Origin: an uncultured Ectothiorhodospiraceae bacterium
Lineage (GTDB): Bacteria; Pseudomonadota; Gammaproteobacteria; GCA-002705445; GCA-002716945
Direction: 5' to 3'
Length of the DNA: 31,362 nt
Assembly: GCA_964342835.1 (NCBI GenBank)
Contig: CAYFGJ010000001.1
Span: 1-31,362, forward strand
The first letter of the stretch is position 1; each line of letters starts with the position of its first letter. Positions 10,405-18,239 of the stretch are shown here, piece after piece. The position numbers and the translations under genes are program-made. Below the pieces are notes generated by a model. That model saw only the letters and a program-made list of their open reading frames with translations. It did no database searches and was not told the DNA's origin.

Positions 10405-11508
10405 TTAAAATCTTATGTATGTAGATGAGTTTAATGTTTTTCTGCCACCACGCCAGTTATCAATATGATATTTAGTGAAAGGTAATTCTGTTAATTCAAA
10501 AAATCTTGGCCATCCAATTCTCTCAATCCAATCATTGATTCTTTCCCAGTCTCTGGCATCATCTTTATACGCTTTAAGTATTCTTTTTACTATAGCTGTA
10601 GCTTCAGGCCATCTTGGTGGATTATTAGGTATACCTGCTGCCACTAATTTTTGGAATGTAGGTTTACTTCTAGCATTAGAGTGATTACCACCTACCCATA
10701 TAGCTAATTTACTATGTTCCGGATCATTTATTTGCATTGGTGGACATGGAGGATAACACGCTCCACAACATATACATTTTTTCTCATCAACTTCTAATGA
10801 TGGTTTACCATTTACCATTGCAGGTCTAATTGCAGCTACTGGACATCTAGCTACTACTGATGGTCTTTCACAAACATTTGAAACTAAATCATGATTAATT
10901 TTTGGTGGTTTTGTATGTTGAATATTAATTGCTATATCACCTTGACCGCCACAATTGATTTGACAACACGAAGTTGTCATATGGACACGATTTGGCATTT
11001 CATTATTTTTGAATTCCTCTATTAATTCATCCATCATTGCTTTCACAACACCAGATGCATCTGTTCCAGGTATATCGCAGTGCAACCAACCTTGGGTATG
11101 GGCAATCATAGCTACAGAATTTTTTGTTCCTCCAACAATAAATCCTTCTTTTTCAAGTTCATTGATTAATGGATCAACTTTCTTAGCATCTTTAACCATG
11201 TATTCAATGTTACTTCGGATCGTAAATCTAACATATCCATCAGCATATTTATCTCCAATATCACACAATTTTCTTAGAGTAAATACATCTAAGATTCTTT
11301 GAGTTCCAGCTCTTATTGTCCAAATTTCTTCACCGCTATTAGCAATATGCTTTAAAACACCTGGTTTAGGATGTTCATGATATTTCCATTGACCAAAATT
11401 CTTACGCATGGTTGGATGCATATATTGAAAACCATCAGGACAACCAGTTTCAATTGGTGATCTAGGTTTAGCCTTTTCTTCTTTTGGGTTTGTTGATTTA
11501 TCAGTCAT
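10405..11508 (-). CDS. dsrB: Dissimilatory sulfite reductase beta subunit (oxidative type)
   Basis: HTQGWLHCDIPGTDASG, TSCCQINCGG, CICCGACYPPCP, PNNPPRWPE, WERINDWIERIGWPRFF. Confidence 0.97.
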   Translation of the reverse strand: MTDKSTNPKEEKAKPRSPIETGCPDGFQYMHPTMRKNFGQWKYHEHPKPGVLKHIANSGEEIWTIRAGTQRILDVFTLRKLCDIGDKYADGYVRFTIRSNIEYMVKDAKKVDPLINELEKEGFIVGGTKNSVAMIAHTQGWLHCDIPGTDASGVVKAMMDELIEEFKNNEMPNRVHMTTSCCQINCGGQGDIAINIQHTKPPKINHDLVSNVCERPSVVARCPVAAIRPAMVNGKPSLEVDEKKCICCGACYPPCPPMQINDPEHSKLAIWVGGNHSNARSKPTFQKLVAAGIPNNPPRWPEATAIVKRILKAYKDDARDWERINDWIERIGWPRFFELTELPFTKYHIDNWRGGRKTLNSSTYIRF

Positions 11509-11511
11509 AAT

Positions 11512-12768
11512 TTATGCAGTTTCTTTTTTATCAGCCTTTTCATACCATTTTACAGCTTCTTGATCCCACTCATCTGTTCTCACATATGAACTTTCTCTTG
11601 GATTAGCAACCATATTAGGATCAACATCAATTCCTATTCCCTCTAAAAAATTGACTAATCCAACTCTTTCTATCATCTCTCCACATCTTTCATGTTCTAG
11701 CGCATTGTCAGCCCAGAAATCTATTGTATTTTCAGCAATTTCTACAAGTTTTTCCCAATCTTCCTCATTTTCTAGTTTCATAAATGGAACAATTACTGTA
11801 CCCATTAAATCACCAATTTTAAGAGTTCTCTTACCGCCAATTAGGATAGTTGCTCCTTTATCATCACCAGGATGTAAAGCTTTAGGAACTACATTCAAAC
11901 AATGCATACATTTGACACAATTTTTGTTATCTATTTCTATGGTGTCATCATCATTTAATGAAATAGCATTTGTTGGACATCTTGTAATAATATTATCAAT
12001 AATATATTTACGTCCCTTTAGTTTCGCGTATTTTTTAAATTCATCTTGATCAACTTTTATATCATCTCTCCATGTACCTATAACTGACATATCAGCTCTC
12101 TCAATTGAATTCATACAATCATTTGGACATCCTGAAATTTTAAACTTAAATTTGTATGGTAAAGCTGGACGATGCATATCATCAACAAAGTTATTTACCA
12201 ATAATCTATGTGCTTTGTGCTCATTAACATTAGACATTTCACATCTACCAGCACCTACGCATGACATTGCAGTTCTGACACATGGACCTGCTCCACCAAG
12301 ATCAAATCCATAACCATTTATATCATCAAAAAAATGTTGAGTAGCTTCAGTGGTAGCACCAATAAACATAATATTTCCAGTTTGACCATGAAACGTAACT
12401 AATCCTGAACCATGTTTTTCCCAACTATCAGCAAGTTTTCTTAACATCGAAGTAGTATAATAATTACCCGCTGGCGGTTGGACTCTTAGTGTATGAAATT
12501 CTTTTGATGCAGGAAATACCTTACCAACTTCGGAAAATCTAGGAATGATACCTCCACCATATCCATAAACACTAACTGTTCCACCTTTCCAATAGCCTTT
12601 TCGTGTTTCATATGAATGCTCAAGTTGCCCTAACAAGTCATTCGTCATTTCATTAATTCTTTTATCTGGATGTGTATCTCTAAGAGTCTTTATGCCACTA
12701 ATAAAGCTAGGCCATGGGCCAGTCTCCAGATCATCTAACATTGGTGTATCATGTTTTTTCATAGTCAT
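11512..12768 (-). CDS. dsrA: Dissimilatory sulfite reductase alpha subunit (oxidative type)
   Basis: TPMLDDLETGPWPSF, WKGG.V.V.GYGGG, FHTLRV, siroheme-Fe4S4 ligands CVRTAMSC and GCPNDC, CVKCMHC, HERCGE. Confidence 0.97.
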   Translation of the reverse strand: MTMKKHDTPMLDDLETGPWPSFISGIKTLRDTHPDKRINEMTNDLLGQLEHSYETRKGYWKGGTVSVYGYGGGIIPRFSEVGKVFPASKEFHTLRVQPPAGNYYTTSMLRKLADSWEKHGSGLVTFHGQTGNIMFIGATTEATQHFFDDINGYGFDLGGAGPCVRTAMSCVGAGRCEMSNVNEHKAHRLLVNNFVDDMHRPALPYKFKFKISGCPNDCMNSIERADMSVIGTWRDDIKVDQDEFKKYAKLKGRKYIIDNIITRCPTNAISLNDDDTIEIDNKNCVKCMHCLNVVPKALHPGDDKGATILIGGKRTLKIGDLMGTVIVPFMKLENEEDWEKLVEIAENTIDFWADNALEHERCGEMIERVGLVNFLEGIGIDVDPNMVANPRESSYVRTDEWDQEAVKWYEKADKKETA

Positions 12769-12797
12769 TCATTCCCCATTGGAATACTTCGTATATT

Positions 12798-12827
12798 ATT
12801 TTATCATTAGTTTCTAATATATGTCTA
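12798..12827 (-). promoter_or_regulatory. Candidate sigma70 promoter of the dsr operon
   Basis: TAGACA-18 nt-TAAAAT with extended -10 TG, about 30 nt upstream of dsrA in the 115-bp divergent intergenic region. Confidence 0.35.
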
Positions 12828-12883
12828 AATATTTATTTTAAGCCATTTTTTATAAATGTAAACTCAATAATAAGGATAAAATT

Positions 12884-13738
12884 ATGGATGTATTGAAAAC
12901 TAATAAAAATACATATGAACGATGGGCAAATAATAAATTAGAGTCTTTCACATCTGATATCGATGATTTATTGGTCGAAATTAGTGATCCTGCACGTATA
13001 AGTAAAGGTGAAATGATTAGAATAAAAAAAATTATCAATGCTTATAACATGGTTTTTTATGAATTTACTAGGCCAATTAAAGACACACAATCGTCTCTAA
13101 TTAAATTAATGCATAATTTAAATATCAAAAATTTTGTCAAAGATTCAAAATCTAATAAAAATGGTATTACTGCCATTGAATTAGATCAAAAAATAATGAC
13201 TGAAGATGAATATATTCCATATACTAAAAGATCATTAAATTGGCACACTGATGGTTATTATAATAAATTAAATAAACCCATATATTCATGGATACTCCAT
13301 TGCAAACAAAGAGCAAAGAATGGTGGTGTTAATACCTTTTTTGATCACGAGATCATATATATTTTATTTAATCAATTAACGAATAAAATTTTATCTTTGA
13401 TGGATAATGAAATTTATATAATTCCAGAAAATAAAAAAAATGGAAGAAAAGAAATAAAAAGCTATGTTTTTTCATATGATAATCCATATAAAAAATTGCA
13501 TATGAGATTCACTATGAGAGAGAGAAATATTAAATGGAAAAAAATGTATGAAGATGAAATAGAAATTTTAAAAAACATAATAGAAAAAAATTCCAAATAT
13601 AAAATTTCCTATAAACTTCAACCTGGACAAGGAGTAATAACAAACAATGTTATTCATTCAAGAACAGCATTTACAAACGATATCAATCATCATAGGCTGA
13701 TATATAGAATTAGATCAACTCAAAGAATTAATTTATAA
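12884..13738 (+). CDS. TauD/TfdA-family Fe(II)/2-oxoglutarate dioxygenase-like protein
   Basis: WHTDGYY (HxD), LHC...A..GG.N, PGQG...NNVIHSRT (distal His and Arg). Confidence 0.8.
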   Translation: MDVLKTNKNTYERWANNKLESFTSDIDDLLVEISDPARISKGEMIRIKKIINAYNMVFYEFTRPIKDTQSSLIKLMHNLNIKNFVKDSKSNKNGITAIELDQKIMTEDEYIPYTKRSLNWHTDGYYNKLNKPIYSWILHCKQRAKNGGVNTFFDHEIIYILFNQLTNKILSLMDNEIYIIPENKKNGRKEIKSYVFSYDNPYKKLHMRFTMRERNIKWKKMYEDEIEILKNIIEKNSKYKISYKLQPGQGVITNNVIHSRTAFTNDINHHRLIYRIRSTQRINL

Positions 13739-13741
13739 AAT

Positions 13742-13933
13742 ATGTTGTATTTAAGTAGTGTATTAATTGAATATAAAGAAATTGAAACATTCGATGAATT
13801 GTTAAATGTCATTAAGGAAAAAGCTAAATTGGGTGAAATATTTATTAAAATGGACCTAAAACCACCATATCCTGATACACCAGATAATTGGGAAGAAAAA
13901 ATTGAAGCAGCATTCAGTGGTTATCAAAAATAA
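13742..13933 (+). CDS. Small hypothetical protein (63 aa) of a type recalled from dsr-containing sulfur oxidizers
   Basis: MLYLS..L....IETFDEL...MDLKPPYPDTPDNWE; 3-bp and 2-bp gaps to its neighbours. Confidence 0.7.
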   Translation: MLYLSSVLIEYKEIETFDELLNVIKEKAKLGEIFIKMDLKPPYPDTPDNWEEKIEAAFSGYQK

Positions 13934-13935
13934 TT

Positions 13936-14610
13936 ATGTGGGAATCAGACGAAAAAAAAATTATTGAAAGTAAGGCAAAAATGATAGATGTTTCATATGC
14001 TATAGAGTGTTCAACTCTACCTTATGATCATGCTTTTGAATTATCTAACGAGATTATAAAAAAACTTCCTTGGTTTTATGATAATAAATTAAATGGAATA
14101 CAAACGCTGCATGGTCCTGACTCTGGAAATGGTTGGACAAGAGCTGAAAATGAAACAATATTTTTATCTAAAAGAACAAAATTAATTATTAGAATTTCAA
14201 AAAATCTGATTGAGAATGCAAAAAATCTAGAAAATGCTGAAATTAATATTGACGGTAATATATTAAAAATAAAAAAATTAACTCTAAAACCATTCTCCAT
14301 CTCAAAAGTTCTTTTTTGTAGATGTGTATTAAGTAATGAAAATATTGATGAAAGTAATTTTTTAAATGCCATTACAGATGAACTAAAAAAACATAAAATT
14401 ATAATAAAAAAAGCACTTTGTGGTAAAAGTAGAACTATAAATTTAGAAGGAAAAAATAATTATACGAGAAGCTTGATGCTAGCTGGTTTATCTAAACAAG
14501 ATTCTATTACATTACAAGATGTAGGTATTGGCAGAGGAAGAGTTTTTGGATGTGGTATTTTTCTTCCATATAAGTCAATTGATGCTGTAGATAATTTTAA
14601 AGACGAATAA
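13936..14610 (+). CDS. cas6: Cas6-like RAMP endoribonuclease (Cmx6 / I-MYXAN-like), orphan
   Basis: N-terminal D..Y.I....LP.DH...L, H...SGNGW, LSKRTKL.IR and C-terminal G-rich loop GIGRGRVFGCG matching GhGxxxxxGhG. Confidence 0.8.
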   Translation: MWESDEKKIIESKAKMIDVSYAIECSTLPYDHAFELSNEIIKKLPWFYDNKLNGIQTLHGPDSGNGWTRAENETIFLSKRTKLIIRISKNLIENAKNLENAEINIDGNILKIKKLTLKPFSISKVLFCRCVLSNENIDESNFLNAITDELKKHKIIIKKALCGKSRTINLEGKNNYTRSLMLAGLSKQDSITLQDVGIGRGRVFGCGIFLPYKSIDAVDNFKDE

Positions 14611-14688
14611 ATATTTTTTTAATATAGACTTATACTTTTTAGTATATTAGAATTTTGCAATATAGTTGAATTGTTTGATAAGTATACT

Positions 14689-15027
14689 ATGAAAATTGAA
14701 CATGAAGGAAAAGAAATAGAACTTACAGATACTGGTTTTTTAATCAATATTGATGATTGGAATGAAGGCATAGCTAAAATAATAGCTGATCAAGAAGAAA
14801 TAGTCTTAACAGATAAACACTGGGATGTGATTAATTATCTAAGAGATGAATTTTTAAATAATAAAGAAAATCAGCCAAATACACGTAATATGGTTAAAGA
14901 TTTAGGTAAGATGTGGAATGAAAAAATTGATACTAAAGCATTATTTGATCTATTTCCAGGTAACCCCAGCAAGCAAGCTGGAAGAATAGCTGGATTACCT
15001 GAAAGTAGAAGAAAAGGTGGCTATTAA
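14689..15027 (+). CDS. DsrC/TusE-family paralog lacking both C-terminal cysteines
   Basis: TDTGFL.N.DDWNE, LTDKHWDVINYLR, LFPGNPSKQAGRIAGLP; no Cys at all. ATG at 14689 preferred to TTG at 14671. Confidence 0.85.
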   Translation: MKIEHEGKEIELTDTGFLINIDDWNEGIAKIIADQEEIVLTDKHWDVINYLRDEFLNNKENQPNTRNMVKDLGKMWNEKIDTKALFDLFPGNPSKQAGRIAGLPESRRKGGY

Positions 15028-15260
15028 TGAATGATACAAAAGATAATAAAGCGCTCCAAGATGAAAGAAAAAAAATAATCGCTAGATTACTAGAAATTCA
15101 GAAAAAATTTATGGAGCTAGAAAGAAAAAAAGGTGTTACAGAAAAAGATATCCATCATAATCCCAAAGGAATTGTTAAAGAATATAAAGAAGAACATGAG
15201 AAATTAGCAAATCGCTTGGTTGATATTGCGCATCAGTTAAAAGGCTCAATAAGAACATAA
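15027..15260 (+). CDS. Small helical hypothetical protein
   Basis: Translationally coupled (TAATG overlaps on both sides); ends RLVDIAHQLKGSIRT; resembles a family recalled from sulfur oxidizers. Confidence 0.7.
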   Translation: MNDTKDNKALQDERKKIIARLLEIQKKFMELERKKGVTEKDIHHNPKGIVKEYKEEHEKLANRLVDIAHQLKGSIRT

Positions 15261-15454
15261 TGAATAAAGAATATTTCGATAAAATAACTGAATTAGAAAA
15301 AATGAATGTTTCTGAAGATTATATTATTGGATGGCAAGAAGGTTATCAGCATAGTCCAAAAGTAGAAGAACAACGATTAAATAATGCATATGAAGCTGGC
15401 TATGAAGATGGCGAAAAAAAATCAATAGAAAACGCTCAAAAATATAAAAAATAA
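15260..15454 (+). CDS. Small protein, likely Alvin_2107-like sulfur-globule-oxidation family
   Basis: EKMNV..DYIIGWQEGY...P..EEQR...AYEAGYEDG pattern; family name from memory, not searched. Confidence 0.55.
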   Translation: MNKEYFDKITELEKMNVSEDYIIGWQEGYQHSPKVEEQRLNNAYEAGYEDGEKKSIENAQKYKK

Positions 15455-15456
15455 AT

Positions 15457-16020
15457 TTAATCTCTTGTTATTGATTCAAAAGTCTCAATTATTTTATTAC
15501 AAATATCGTTTGCATCAATATCAACAATCTGGTCCATTACCCATTTATTAGTTTGACTTAATCCCATAGCATCTTGAATTTTCTTAGCCAAATGTCTAAA
15601 AATTGAATAATTATTTTCTTTTTTATCAAATGAATATTCAGAATATTCTGCGGATCTAAGATTGAGAGTATTAATGTACCCTTTTTTATAATTACCATTT
15701 CCAAACAAATCTTCACAATTTTCTTGCATGATTCGAGCTGATTGTTTTCCTAAAGCATTCATAATATTCAATCGTTTCTCATCACTAAAAGAATTATTGT
15801 ACAAAAGTCTATCAATTATATGTACTTGAAAAGACATATATTCAACAATCACCGTAACTCTTTGATGATCAGAACTATATTCATAATCATCTCCATGGAG
15901 TTGTTTCGCTTTATGAAGAGCAATTTTCCATGATATAAAAGATAGAGCACTAGCTATATCATCAGGGCTTTTTTGATTTTTAGAGGTTTTAGACCATTTA
16001 TTCTTAATTCTTATAGCCAT
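15457..16020 (-). CDS. Hypothetical protein (187 aa)
   Basis: Long ORF convergent on the accessory operon; RIKNKW.K...DDIASALSFISWKIA resembles a sulfur-oxidizer conserved family (recall only). Confidence 0.7.
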   Translation of the reverse strand: MAIRIKNKWSKTSKNQKSPDDIASALSFISWKIALHKAKQLHGDDYEYSSDHQRVTVIVEYMSFQVHIIDRLLYNNSFSDEKRLNIMNALGKQSARIMQENCEDLFGNGNYKKGYINTLNLRSAEYSEYSFDKKENNYSIFRHLAKKIQDAMGLSQTNKWVMDQIVDIDANDICNKIIETFESITRD

Positions 16021-16088: not shown

Positions 16089-16682
16089 ATGAACATAGAA
16101 ATACAAAAAAGATTAATTGAAGTTAAACCTGGAAGTTTCATTTTTGAGTTTAATAACTCTATCGATAAAACAAAATGTGAAGAAATAATTGATAGATTTG
16201 AGAATTCAAAAAATGATCATTATCGTGGACGTGTCGGTCAAAATTATAAAGAAGATCCAAGCATAAAACGTTCCACTGACATGGTGCTTAGCGGAAAAGA
16301 TAATTGGAAAGATATAGATGAATTATTGTTTACCAGTTTATCTAAAGCTTTGAGTATCGTAAAAAAAGAATATGATTTTTTCAATGGTCCTTTTAAAGAT
16401 ATTGGTTATGCTGTCCAAAAAACTGAATCTGGTGAATTCTTTAACTGGCATATTGATAGTGGAAATCACCAACTAAGTGATAGGCAACTAGTAGCAATCT
16501 GGTATTTGAATGATGTTGCTGGGCCAGGTGGTGAAACAGAATTTTTAAATCAAAACATTAAAATAAAACCAGAAGTAGGGAAATTAATATTATTTCCTCC
16601 GTTTTGGACACATGAGCATCGTGGTGTTAAACTTCAAAATGGTATTAAATATATTGCAACTACATGGATTGTATTTAAATAA
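16089..16682 (+). CDS. Prolyl-4-hydroxylase-like 2OG-Fe(II) oxygenase
   Basis: WHIDSG (HxD), WYLND...GGETEF, P..GKLILFP..WTHEHRG, KYIATTW. Confidence 0.88.
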   Translation: MNIEIQKRLIEVKPGSFIFEFNNSIDKTKCEEIIDRFENSKNDHYRGRVGQNYKEDPSIKRSTDMVLSGKDNWKDIDELLFTSLSKALSIVKKEYDFFNGPFKDIGYAVQKTESGEFFNWHIDSGNHQLSDRQLVAIWYLNDVAGPGGETEFLNQNIKIKPEVGKLILFPPFWTHEHRGVKLQNGIKYIATTWIVFK

Positions 16683-17806
16683 TGAACAAGACTAAACATC
16701 AAGAATTATCATCTGATGAATTAATAAAATCTGTAATTCAAAAGATTGCGACTGGTCCTACACAAAGCAAAAATATAAGTAGAGAAGAAGCAAAACAGTG
16801 TATGTTAAATATACTTGATAATAAAATAGATGAAGTAAGATCATCAATATTCTTAATTGCATTACGTATGAAAAGAGAAACAGATGATGAGAATTTAGGT
16901 ATACATGATGCCATAATTGAAACAACTAAAACGATAGACATCTCTTTGGATCATTTAATAAATATTGCTGATCCTTATGATGGATTTACAAGACACATTC
17001 CATCATCCGCATTCATTCCACCAGTACTAGCGGAATTAGGTTATCCAACAATTTCACATGGATTAGAGTCTGTTGGGCCTAAATATGGTTGTACACATCA
17101 TCAGACCTATGCAGAACTTGGATTAAATCCAAAATTAAATCATGAACAAAATATTGAAAGATTATTAAATAAAAAAATTGGATGGGCATATATTGATCAA
17201 TGTCAATTTAATAAAAAACTTTTTAATCTTATGTCTCTTAGAAAAAAGATTATCAAGAGACCTGCTATTACAACAGTAGAAGTTTTAGTCAAACCTATTG
17301 CAGCTAAAAAAAATTATTTTGTTACTGGATATGTTCATAAAGCATATCCTCCAATATATTTAAAATTAGCAAGAAATGCAGGATTTAATAGTTCAATGGT
17401 TATAAAAGGAACAGAAGGTGGAATAATTCCCTCTCTAAGTCAACCAAGTAAAATATTTTCTTATAAAAATATTAATGATGAAGATGTGGCTAGTGAATAT
17501 GATCCAAAAAAAGATTGTGAAATTGATCAATCTATAAGAGCAGTAGAAATACCAAAAAATGCATCTATAACATCAGCGGTTGATAAAATTGAATCAAAAA
17601 TCCAACCAAAAGATATAGCAAAAGAGAGCGTAAAACAAGGAATTGAGGCACTGAAGGGGAAAGAGGGTTCAATGAAAGATTGTATAGCATATGGAGCATC
17701 TATTATCTTCAGCAAAATTAGTGGATACGATATACATAAAAGTAATAATGAAATTAAAAAAGTTCTCGATTCTGGATCTGCATTTGAGAGAATAAATCAT
17801 GAATAA
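16682..17806 (+). CDS. Anthranilate phosphoribosyltransferase-like (glycosyltransferase family 3, TrpD2/YbiB-like) protein
   Basis: N-terminal helical domain (IATGP...FLIALRMKRET..E), TISHG...VGPKYG, GYVH..Y, KGTEGG; lacks GTGGD and KHGN. Confidence 0.75.
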   Translation: MNKTKHQELSSDELIKSVIQKIATGPTQSKNISREEAKQCMLNILDNKIDEVRSSIFLIALRMKRETDDENLGIHDAIIETTKTIDISLDHLINIADPYDGFTRHIPSSAFIPPVLAELGYPTISHGLESVGPKYGCTHHQTYAELGLNPKLNHEQNIERLLNKKIGWAYIDQCQFNKKLFNLMSLRKKIIKRPAITTVEVLVKPIAAKKNYFVTGYVHKAYPPIYLKLARNAGFNSSMVIKGTEGGIIPSLSQPSKIFSYKNINDEDVASEYDPKKDCEIDQSIRAVEIPKNASITSAVDKIESKIQPKDIAKESVKQGIEALKGKEGSMKDCIAYGASIIFSKISGYDIHKSNNEIKKVLDSGSAFERINHE

Positions 17807-18239
17807 TACAATTACATTTGACTGGAGTGATAAAGAAATATGGAGTAGATCTGCATATAATACAATGTGGTGTTTAATTGGCTGCAGTATAGGTGATCTT
17901 GGTACAATTTATTATTTTCAAATAACAGGCATTCCTTGGACTACTATGTCAATAATGTTATTAGCAATGTTTAATGGCATTGTTACTAGTATTATTTTAG
18001 AAACATTTATTCTATTAAAACAAATGTCTTTTTTTGTTGCTCTTAAAACTGCTATGGGTATGAGTTTAATTTCTATGATAAGTATGGAATTAGCAATGAA
18101 TCTTGTTGATGTATTATTAACTGGAGGTGCTAGATTAAACCTTTATGTCATTCCAATCATGTTGATTGCGGGTTTTATAACACCCTGGCCATATAATTAT
18201 TGGAGATTAAAAAAATTTGGATCTGGTTGTTGCCATTAA
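17799..18239 (+). CDS. DUF4396-like membrane protein
   Basis: CLIGCSIGD, SIILET, MSLISMISMELAMN..D, GF..PWPYNYW; Met/Cys-rich, ends GCCH. Confidence 0.75.
   Translation: MNNTITFDWSDKEIWSRSAYNTMWCLIGCSIGDLGTIYYFQITGIPWTTMSIMLLAMFNGIVTSIILETFILLKQMSFFVALKTAMGMSLISMISMELAMNLVDVLLTGGARLNLYVIPIMLIAGFITPWPYNYWRLKKFGSGCCH

Follow-up and report, generated by a model that had tools for sequence, protein, structure and literature searches.

The Cas6-like gene and its locus

The stretch of DNA that we analysed (hereafter the window) covers 31,362 nucleotides of contig CAYFGJ010000001.1, from the genome assembly GCA_964342835.1 of an uncultured Ectothiorhodospiraceae bacterium. It carries, beside the genes of a reverse-type dissimilatory sulfite reductase, a gene for a Cas6-like protein (13936..14610, plus strand). 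The open reading frame (ORF) of this gene is intact: it starts with ATG, encodes 224 amino acids and contains no internal stop. It is the third plus-strand gene of a tightly packed operon that begins with dsrQ (12884..13738, plus strand), which encodes a TauD-like Fe(II)/2-oxoglutarate dioxygenase (PF02668, E 1.8e-10), and continues with orf63 (13742..13933, plus strand), which encodes a small acidic helical protein and has its stop 2 nt before the ATG at 13936. The dsrQ/orf63/Cas6-like operon is divergent from dsrA (11512-12768, minus strand; TIGR02064, 613 bits at 11536-12738) and from dsrB (10405-11508, minus strand, an ORF), and these two reverse-type reductase genes (dsrAB, 10405-12768) are the head of a full dsr operon. 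A first reading of the locus, made from its sequence alone (the sequence-only reading), had seen a gene tightly coupled to genes unrelated to CRISPR and divergent from dsrA, and the gaps between 13738 and 13742 and between 13933 and 13936, with dsrA on the minus strand, bear this out.

We are highly confident that the product of this gene is a bona fide Cas6-fold member of the Cmx6 family, in a distinct clade outside CRISPR-Cas. With the same confidence we count the gene as an accessory of the oxidative (reverse) Dsr set in the Gammaproteobacteria, where it is near-universal and in single copy, with orf63 and the Cas6-like gene, a translationally coupled pair, as a fixed core. The assignment to the family rests on PF09559, on TIGR02807, on the match to the structure 8fcj_B by both sequence and fold, and on conservation within the clade, while the link with the Dsr set comes from a survey of genomes across the class.

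A Cas6-fold protein of the Cmx6 family

The protein matches the Pfam family PF09559 ('Cas6') over positions 1-190 of the 191 of the model (E 4e-50, 170.9 bits for a cut-off of 26.7). The search with TIGR02807 (cas6_cmx6, the type I-MYXAN Cas6/Cmx6 equivalog), a check that the sequence-only reading had proposed, gives 110.7 bits for a cut-off of 98.85, so that both full-length hidden Markov models of the Cas6/Cmx6 family are matched above their curated cut-offs. PF09559 occurs once in the source genome. When a profile was built from the protein and eight of its relatives, one solved structure was found, chain B of PDB entry 8fcj (E 1.5e-21), which is the Cas6 of the Cascade complex of a type I-B CRISPR-associated transposon (CAST).

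The fold leads to the same family. The AlphaFold2 model of the protein has a mean predicted local distance difference test score (pLDDT) of 79.8 and a predicted template modelling score (pTM) of 0.76, with a poorly defined loop at residues 61-70. It matches 8fcj_B and 8fcu_B with template modelling (TM) scores of 0.71-0.76 (E 1.6e-15; 0.73-0.76 for 8fcj_B alone), and the next matches are the structures of archaeal Cas6 and of Cas6e/Cse3. The predicted model contains the two ferredoxin-like (RNA recognition motif, RRM) domains and the C-terminal glycine-rich loop that define a Cas6. Since the two family profiles, the profile match to 8fcj_B and the fold matches of the model agree, we place the protein in the Cas6 family by both sequence and fold.

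The glycine-rich loop, GIGRGRVFGCG, occupies residues 197-207 (14524-14556), and the earlier description of an intact protein of the RAMP superfamily with a Cas6 loop stands. That reading had also singled out the segment LHGPDSGNGW (residues 58-67) for its conserved-looking histidine, and this point did not hold up: H59 is found in only 68% of the clade and gives way to Y, Q, L or F in the rest, and the near-invariant residues of the segment are only G66 and W67. The conserved histidine of the clade is instead H32 (codon at 14029-14031), within the motif 'LP.DH'.

No CRISPR-Cas system in the source genome

The source assembly amounts to 993 kb in 118 contigs, of which the window is contig C1, and it is 94.7% complete. 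No match to Cas1, Cas2, DevR/Cas7, Cas5d or Cas3_HD was found in it at E<=1, and a k-mer scan found no CRISPR array, although an incomplete assembly cannot by itself prove that cas genes and arrays are absent. A weak match of the array scan (C9:3144-3274), with near-repeats about 65 nt apart, was rejected: it is a T-rich low-complexity repeat of coding type (Lys/Ala-rich on the other strand) and not an array. We also discarded PF22590 (Cas3-like_C_2) as a CRISPR marker, since it matches in all 14 control genomes and is thus uninformative. The absence of an array, of cas1/2/3 and of effector genes, which had been noted for the window, therefore extends to the whole genome, where the search for a type I system with its array, a finding that would have spoken against the sequence-only reading, returned nothing. 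Neither the array nor the cas1, cas2 and effector genes that go with a CRISPR-associated Cas6 are there.

Linkage to the dsr genes across genomes

The neighbourhoods were surveyed with one genome per species. Relatives of the protein were found in at least 591 stretches of DNA, and the counts that follow come from the best 80 of these loci, annotated with profiles grown from the window's own proteins. Their hosts are sulfur oxidisers, including Thiothrix, Thiomargarita, Thiolinea, Halochromatium, Thiorhodococcus, Ectothiorhodospiraceae, Thiohalobacter, Thiogranum and Cocleimonas. The order that recurs in them is dsrA (minus strand), dsrQ, the gene of the 63-aa protein, the Cas6-like gene, and a gene for a cysteine-free paralogue of DsrC. 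The orf63 gene lies directly upstream of the Cas6-like gene in 77 of the 80 loci, the DsrC-like paralogue is found in 70, dsrQ in 60, a divergent dsrA in 56 (the other loci being mostly short contigs) and orf77, a further small gene of the window, in 54. The association becomes looser for a second 2-oxoglutarate (2OG)-Fe(II) oxygenase (33/80), for orf187 (28/80) and for the Alvin_2107 family (20/80).

The dsrQ gene is missing from the loci of the named Chromatiaceae, Halochromatium and Thiorhodococcus (L085, L087 and L090), which keep dsrA, orf63, the Cas6-like gene and the DsrC-like gene, and it is also missing from L039, L060, L070, L074 and L088. Because Thiorhodococcus and Halochromatium retain the rest, the oxygen-dependent DsrQ is not part of the fixed core.

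To count co-occurrence independently of position, we used 401 genomes of the class, sampled so that its families are evenly represented, in which dsrA was called by TIGR02064 (E<=1e-30) and the Cas6 family by PF09559. Related genomes are not independent observations, and the balance by family is to be read with that in mind. PF09559 is present in 125 of these genomes and dsrA in 127. A comparison of the two tables by hand gives 120 genomes with both, 5 with the Cas6 family only, 7 with dsrA only and 269 with neither, and the subtractions agree (125-5 = 127-7). The five genomes with the Cas6 family only are of two kinds: G045 and G331 carry a Cas6 of 193-194 aa at most 8 kb from Cas1 and a CRISPR array, that is, a genuine CRISPR Cas6, while in G156, G191 and G281 a dsr-type operon is cut by a contig end. 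For the dsr-type gene proper, dsrA is thus also present in 120 of the 123 carrier genomes, the three exceptions being the cut operons. As for the seven genomes with dsrA only, four are 55-90% complete, and in another, G316, the contig is broken some 100 nt upstream of dsrA. Physical distance does not break the co-occurrence: in G076, G175, G341 and G422 the same chromosome carries both genes at widely separated positions. A sample at the level of the phylum gave 3 matches in 341 genomes; it is dominated by families that do not oxidise sulfur and has no bearing on other classes.

The gene therefore both accompanies the oxidative dsrAB genes across genomes and keeps its position beside the dsr operon, and this includes the divergent members at L108 and L109. 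The sequence-only reading had mentioned Cmx6-like genes near the dsr clusters of other sulfur oxidizers, and the dsr neighbourhood in 80 species, together with the 120 double-positive genomes, agrees with this. The dsr-linked, CRISPR-free clade that it had suggested looking for also exists, with about half of the carriers lacking Cas1. Indeed, Cas1 is found in 150 of the 401 genomes (G063 is counted only in this background total), and in a hand count of the 120 double-positive genomes it is present in 61 and absent from 59, among which are closed genomes such as G042 and G049.

Separation from the CRISPR-type Cmx6 proteins

The known proteins closest to the one described here are the Cmx6 proteins of types I-MYXAN and I-B (chain B of 8FCJ and 8FCU), which belong to the same sequence family and have the same double ferredoxin-like fold. 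We retrieved a CRISPR-type set by a search with the G045 protein, which yielded proteins of about 200 aa named I-MYXAN Cas6 in their source. We computed a maximum-likelihood tree from 66 dsr-type sequences and 45 of the CRISPR type, and a single branch splits the two, with a support of 100 in the Shimodaira-Hasegawa-like approximate likelihood ratio test (SH-aLRT); a sequence was assigned to its group according to the search by which it had been retrieved, and the genomic context was verified for more than 80 dsr-type and 4 CRISPR-type loci. The CRISPR context was confirmed at L094, L095, L096 and L107, the last of which (protein P0354) reads WYL-Cas6-Cas3-DevT-DevR-x-Cas4/Cas1-Cas2, followed by an array of 27 repeats. 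On the other side, P0266 and P0268, the most divergent of the dsr-type representatives listed, still adjoin dsrA, and they are preceded by a 70-aa DUF6967 protein and not by orf63. One genome, G330, holds a copy of each type. Homologues without any dsr association, which would have counted against the sequence-only reading, were indeed seen. All of these, however, are genuine I-MYXAN Cas6 proteins and stand on the far side of the fully supported branch, so the objection does not apply.

Both clades keep D18, D31-H32, L36, G66, R86, F142, G163, Q194, the glycines G197, G199, G205 and G207, and mostly C206. The CRISPR-type and dsr-type proteins thus have in common the loop pattern G-h-G-x5-G-C-G, shared with I-B as well as with I-MYXAN Cmx6, the D-H dyad after strand 1, and the residues R86, F142, G163 and Q194. 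The glycines of the loop are 92-97% conserved in the dsr-type clade. In contrast to CRISPR Cmx6, the dsr-type protein has neither array nor cas partners, stands in a separate clade and is longer by some 30 residues, which are distributed between an N-terminal extension that is acidic and about 20 residues long, an insertion at 61-76 with the invariant W67, and a C-terminal extension with K213. The residues proper to the dsr-type clade are W67 (codon at 14134-14136), found in 141 of 141 representatives, N65 (91%), R80 (142/143), R129 (His in the CRISPR type), E139, R178 (Tyr in the CRISPR type) and K213. H59, found in 68% of the clade, aligns with an invariant Arg of the CRISPR type. A side observation concerns R80: the database representative P0001, listed as 100% identical to the window protein, has Ser at residue 80, where the window has Arg, the near-invariant residue of the clade. 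We also considered C25 and C206 as sulfur-relay residues and rejected them, since C25 is only 57% conserved and C206 is also found in the CRISPR-type Cas6, which makes it structural.

The main finding has to be set against two simpler accounts of an orphan Cas6. One is that the protein is an ordinary CRISPR Cas6 whose array and cas partners are missing from a fragmented assembly, or which serves a CRISPR system in trans. The 118 contigs and incomplete genome, the frequent failure of arrays to assemble and the score above the equivalog cut-off all leave room for it, but no cas gene of the core families was found, the same gene sits in the same dsr context in the closed, Cas1-free genomes mentioned above, and the gene is present in 20 of the 24 genomes of the same family, all of about 1 Mb. 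Moreover, the protein falls on the non-CRISPR side of the branch with 100% support, while the genuine Cmx6 genes lie within 8 kb of Cas1 and an array. This account is close to refuted, and we hold it to be very improbable. The other account, a decaying and functionless relic of a lost CRISPR-Cas locus, has nothing more than the orphan status in its favour and is less probable still. The frame is intact, full-length and in single copy; the proteins remain 34-58% identical across families, with near-invariant residues specific to the clade; and the gene occupies a fixed place beside dsrA in 80 species. Its presence in those 20 small genomes further shows that it is kept despite genome reduction. 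It is this pattern of conservation that refutes the relic, and we consider both accounts effectively excluded.

The exaptation of a Cas6-family protein out of CRISPR and into the reverse-Dsr gene set is real and robust. It also has a consequence for annotation. In 123 of the 125 genomes with PF09559 of the family-balanced class sample, the family has a copy that is not CRISPR-linked; a CRISPR-linked copy was seen only in G045, G331 and G330. Automatic annotation would label all such genes 'type I-MYXAN Cas6/Cmx6', and since the copy of most carriers is not CRISPR-linked, the TIGR02807 'equivalog' wrongly gives an immune label to what is a metabolic accessory gene.

What the protein may do

Our leading reading, to which we give slightly less than an even chance, is that the Cas6-like protein is a re-specified RNA-binding regulator. 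It would have retained the loop architecture of the RAMP proteins and the D-H dyad, and it would recognise a host RNA through the new conserved set formed by W67, R69, R80, R129, R178 and K213. In this way it could tune the expression, the processing or the stability of the transcripts of sulfur-oxidation genes. It would act mainly by binding and not by an obligatory His-dependent cleavage, a preference that we draw from the fact that the histidine is dispensable in about 10% of the lineages. A set of Trp and Arg/Lys residues such as that of the dsr-type clade is typical of nucleic-acid or anion recognition, and the pattern as a whole is what one would expect of a protein that preserved the RAMP core and some of its former surface while changing its ligand, whether for another RNA or for something else.

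Several results weigh against this reading, starting with the search for a target. The CRISPR-type loci have a common repeat with the hairpin ATGCC-GRAA-GGCGT followed by TGAGCAC (consensus ...TGATGCCGRAAGGCGTTGAGCAC); this repeat has no match in the source genome even with 4 mismatches allowed over 23 nt, although a diverged target is possible, so that the cognate repeat hairpin, the substrate expected of a CRISPR-associated Cas6, is another point of difference from CRISPR Cmx6. The spacers 3' of the Cas6-like gene (median length 108 nt) show no general excess of structure in 70 cases, judged by z-scores of the minimum free energy (MFE), and the dsrA leaders are not unusually structured either (median z -0.26). 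Rfam has no match in the window, and an iterative nhmmer search with k-mer enrichment on the downstream regions returned only lineage-specific promoter-like motifs and coding k-mers. At the level of expression, three marine metatranscriptomes were used as assembled contigs, which carry neither strand information nor transcript ends; they contain stretches identical to parts of dsrA/B, of dsrQ, of the DsrC-like gene and of orf77/Alvin_2107, while the Cas6-like gene is touched by only one partial contig piece.

The protein surface raises further doubts. The basic residues that are invariant in the CRISPR type (H48, R59, K101, R141, R165 and, in the loop, R201/K203) are not conserved in the dsr-type clade, bearing in mind that the CRISPR-type set is a narrower clade and that its apparent conservation is inflated. 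The median isoelectric point (pI) is 6.6 for 263 dsr-type sequences and 9.5 for 116 CRISPR-type sequences; the window protein itself has a pI of 8.7, in a Lys-rich genome with 30% GC. H32 is replaced in 14 of 143 full-length and otherwise well-aligned dsr-type representatives (10 times by Tyr, twice by Asn, and by Cys and Ala), whereas His is found in 116 of 116 CRISPR-type sequences. A catalytic role of H32 would follow from its position after strand 1, and the solved Cas6 of the I-B CAST (8fcj_B) has Asn there. The proposal of the sequence-only reading, a domesticated Cas6 acting on host RNA, has thus fared unevenly: the Cas6-family orphan in a dsr-linked and CRISPR-independent clade stands, while the action on RNA gained no support from hairpins, leader structure, downstream structure or Rfam families.

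The main rival takes these same points as its starting material. It holds that the Cas6 fold was re-used as an adaptor for a protein or a ligand after RNA binding was lost, and that it works with orf63 and with the DsrC paralogue that has no cysteine. A partner of DsrAB, DsrEFH or DsrQ might, for instance, be delivered, sequestered or regulated in this way, or the ligand might be an anionic sulfur compound. The lowered pI, the loss of the basic residues, including the RRK of the loop, the dispensable H32 and the lack of a detectable RNA target would all be expected of such an adaptor. So would the constant coupling to an acidic 63-aa partner, which is replaced by the unrelated-looking 70-aa DUF6967 protein in divergent lineages, the acidic sulfur-metabolism proteins encoded around it, and the insertion at 61-76 and the two terminal extensions, which could form new interfaces. 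An obsolete RNA surface would nevertheless not be expected to leave the loop glycines, R86, Q194 and the D31-H32 dyad conserved throughout so deep a clade, and none of the representatives retrieved is an orf63-Cas6 fusion (the long N-terminus of P0154 is unrelated). We regard the adaptor as rather unlikely. A complex prediction for the Cas6-like protein with orf63 (score 0.00, mark 0.32) gave no answer and weighs neither for nor against binding.

Between these two, we continue to favour RNA binding. Taken as a whole, the explanation that combines a CRISPR-free, dsr-linked Cas6 with RNA-binding regulation seems to us about evenly balanced between right and wrong. Its fullest form, in which a Cas6-derived protein integral to the reverse-Dsr pathway would process or protect dsr or accessory transcripts together with its small partner and the cysteine-free DsrC, is put forward only tentatively; it would amount to a Cas protein domesticated into core energy metabolism, and to a clear-cut natural example of a Cas RNA-binding fold being exapted. 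Since Allochromatium vinosum is genetically tractable and dsr mutants have been reported for it (PMC3368242), the role of the protein is directly testable.

Relation to described dsr genes

According to the summary in Löffler et al. 2020 (PMC7596348), Lenk et al. 2012 gave the name dsrQ to the tauD-like gene that diverges from dsrA, and in the same passage this gene goes with (facultatively) aerobic chemotrophic sulfur oxidisers. The gene at 12884-13738 corresponds to it in position and orientation. The text of that paper on dsrQ names no Cas6, no CRISPR and no genes downstream of dsrQ, and the arrangement it describes differs from ours in that the core of orf63, the Cas6-like gene and the DsrC-like gene persists where dsrQ is missing (L085, L087 and L090). 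The lack of dsrQ in these named Chromatiaceae loci agrees with the remark of that passage on aerobic chemotrophs. The Alvin_2107 family (NF049856) offers another comparison: its member shares the operon here and its phyletic pattern nearly matches that of the Cas6-like gene, but it is an unrelated protein of 59 residues, found in the neighbourhood of the minority of loci given above. It is present in 113 of 400 genomes and shared with the dsr-type Cas6-like gene in 108, often unlinked, with 15 genomes having only the Cas6-like gene and 5 only Alvin_2107.

The core formed by orf63, the Cas6-like gene and the Cys-less DsrC tracks dsrAB about as faithfully as the known dsr genes do and survives in genomes of 1 Mb, and it is missing from the pathway descriptions of the accessible literature. 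No description of a dsr-linked Cas6-like protein was found in the literature on Cmx6, on orphan, solo or stand-alone Cas6, on Cas6 with dsr or DsrC, or on the neighbouring Alvin locus tags, a coverage outside which the key A. vinosum omics studies (Weissgerber 2013, 2014) fall.

Neighbouring genes and further observations

The orf63 family has a median pI of 4.5 and the invariant motif D38..P41..D45-T46-P47..W50 (D..P...DTP..W..E..F). It matches no Pfam or NCBIfam family, and its model (pLDDT 90, three helices) has no fold match in the PDB. The Atlas clusters of the family are automatically named 'sulfur relay protein DsrC', a relationship that we rejected because hhalign against DsrC gives no support (E 0.08-0.13). 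In the divergent lineages, the protein encoded in its place upstream of the Cas6-like gene is that of DUF6967 (PF22295; L108:7783-7995 and L109:7789-8004). The two have in common the short pattern G-x-x-F-x3-D-[LV]-x-P...W, and their homology is likewise unsupported, the hhalign matches being weak (E 0.0025 and 0.013).

The 115-bp divergent region between dsrA and dsrQ (12769..12883) contains promoter-like hexamers on both strands, at a frequency not above that of shuffled sequence. On the other side, the Cas6-like gene is separated from the DsrC-like gene by a spacer of 60 nt (14611..14670, plus strand) with a promoter-like TAGACT-17-TAGAAT (14625-14653) and a weak AT-rich hairpin. In two relatives, L042 and L044, the corresponding spacer forms a very stable long hairpin (z -5.1) that most other loci do not have, and which is maybe a terminator or a lineage-specific element.

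The gene that follows (14671..15027, plus strand; likely true start at ATG 14689) encodes a DsrC/TusE paralogue (PF04358, E 2.2e-32) with zero cysteines. Its family, in which 56 of 71 members have no Cys at all, aligns with true DsrC at E 1.5e-39 in hhalign and ends in a conserved tail ...LPxxxRKGGY in place of the ...PTGCV of DsrC. An arm that is kept while its chemistry is gone suggests that the protein is a plug or decoy for an enzyme that binds DsrC. A DsrC paralogue of A. vinosum, Alvin_1508, which is a possible orthologue of the gene at 14671-15027, drops together with the dsr genes on pyrite (PMC11267869). Two small genes come next: orf77 (15027..15260, plus strand), which overlaps the stop of the DsrC-like gene and belongs to no known family, with Pfam matches at chance level only, and a gene of the Alvin_2107 family, named 'globule sulfur oxidation protein' (15260..15454, plus strand; NF049856, E 6e-24, 84.1 bits for a cut-off of 60). 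As weak evidence, two independent metatranscriptomes have contigs that begin at 14681 and 14682, and the DsrC-like/orf77/Alvin_2107 trio may be transcribed apart from dsrQ, orf63 and the Cas6-like gene, from its own promoter at TAGACT-17-TAGAAT.

Beyond this trio lie orf187 (15457-16020, minus strand), which has no family, and the second 2OG-Fe(II) oxygenase, which is P4H-like (16089-16682, plus strand; PF13640, E 2.7e-12), both of them looser members of the conserved neighbourhood. Also kept alongside the module in relatives are the genes of a 374-aa protein (16682-17806), which has a Glycos_trans_3N helical-bundle domain, and of a membrane protein of DUF4396 (17799-18239). Two distinct Fe(II)/2OG oxygenases thus share one neighbourhood, beside small proteins with invariant prolines.

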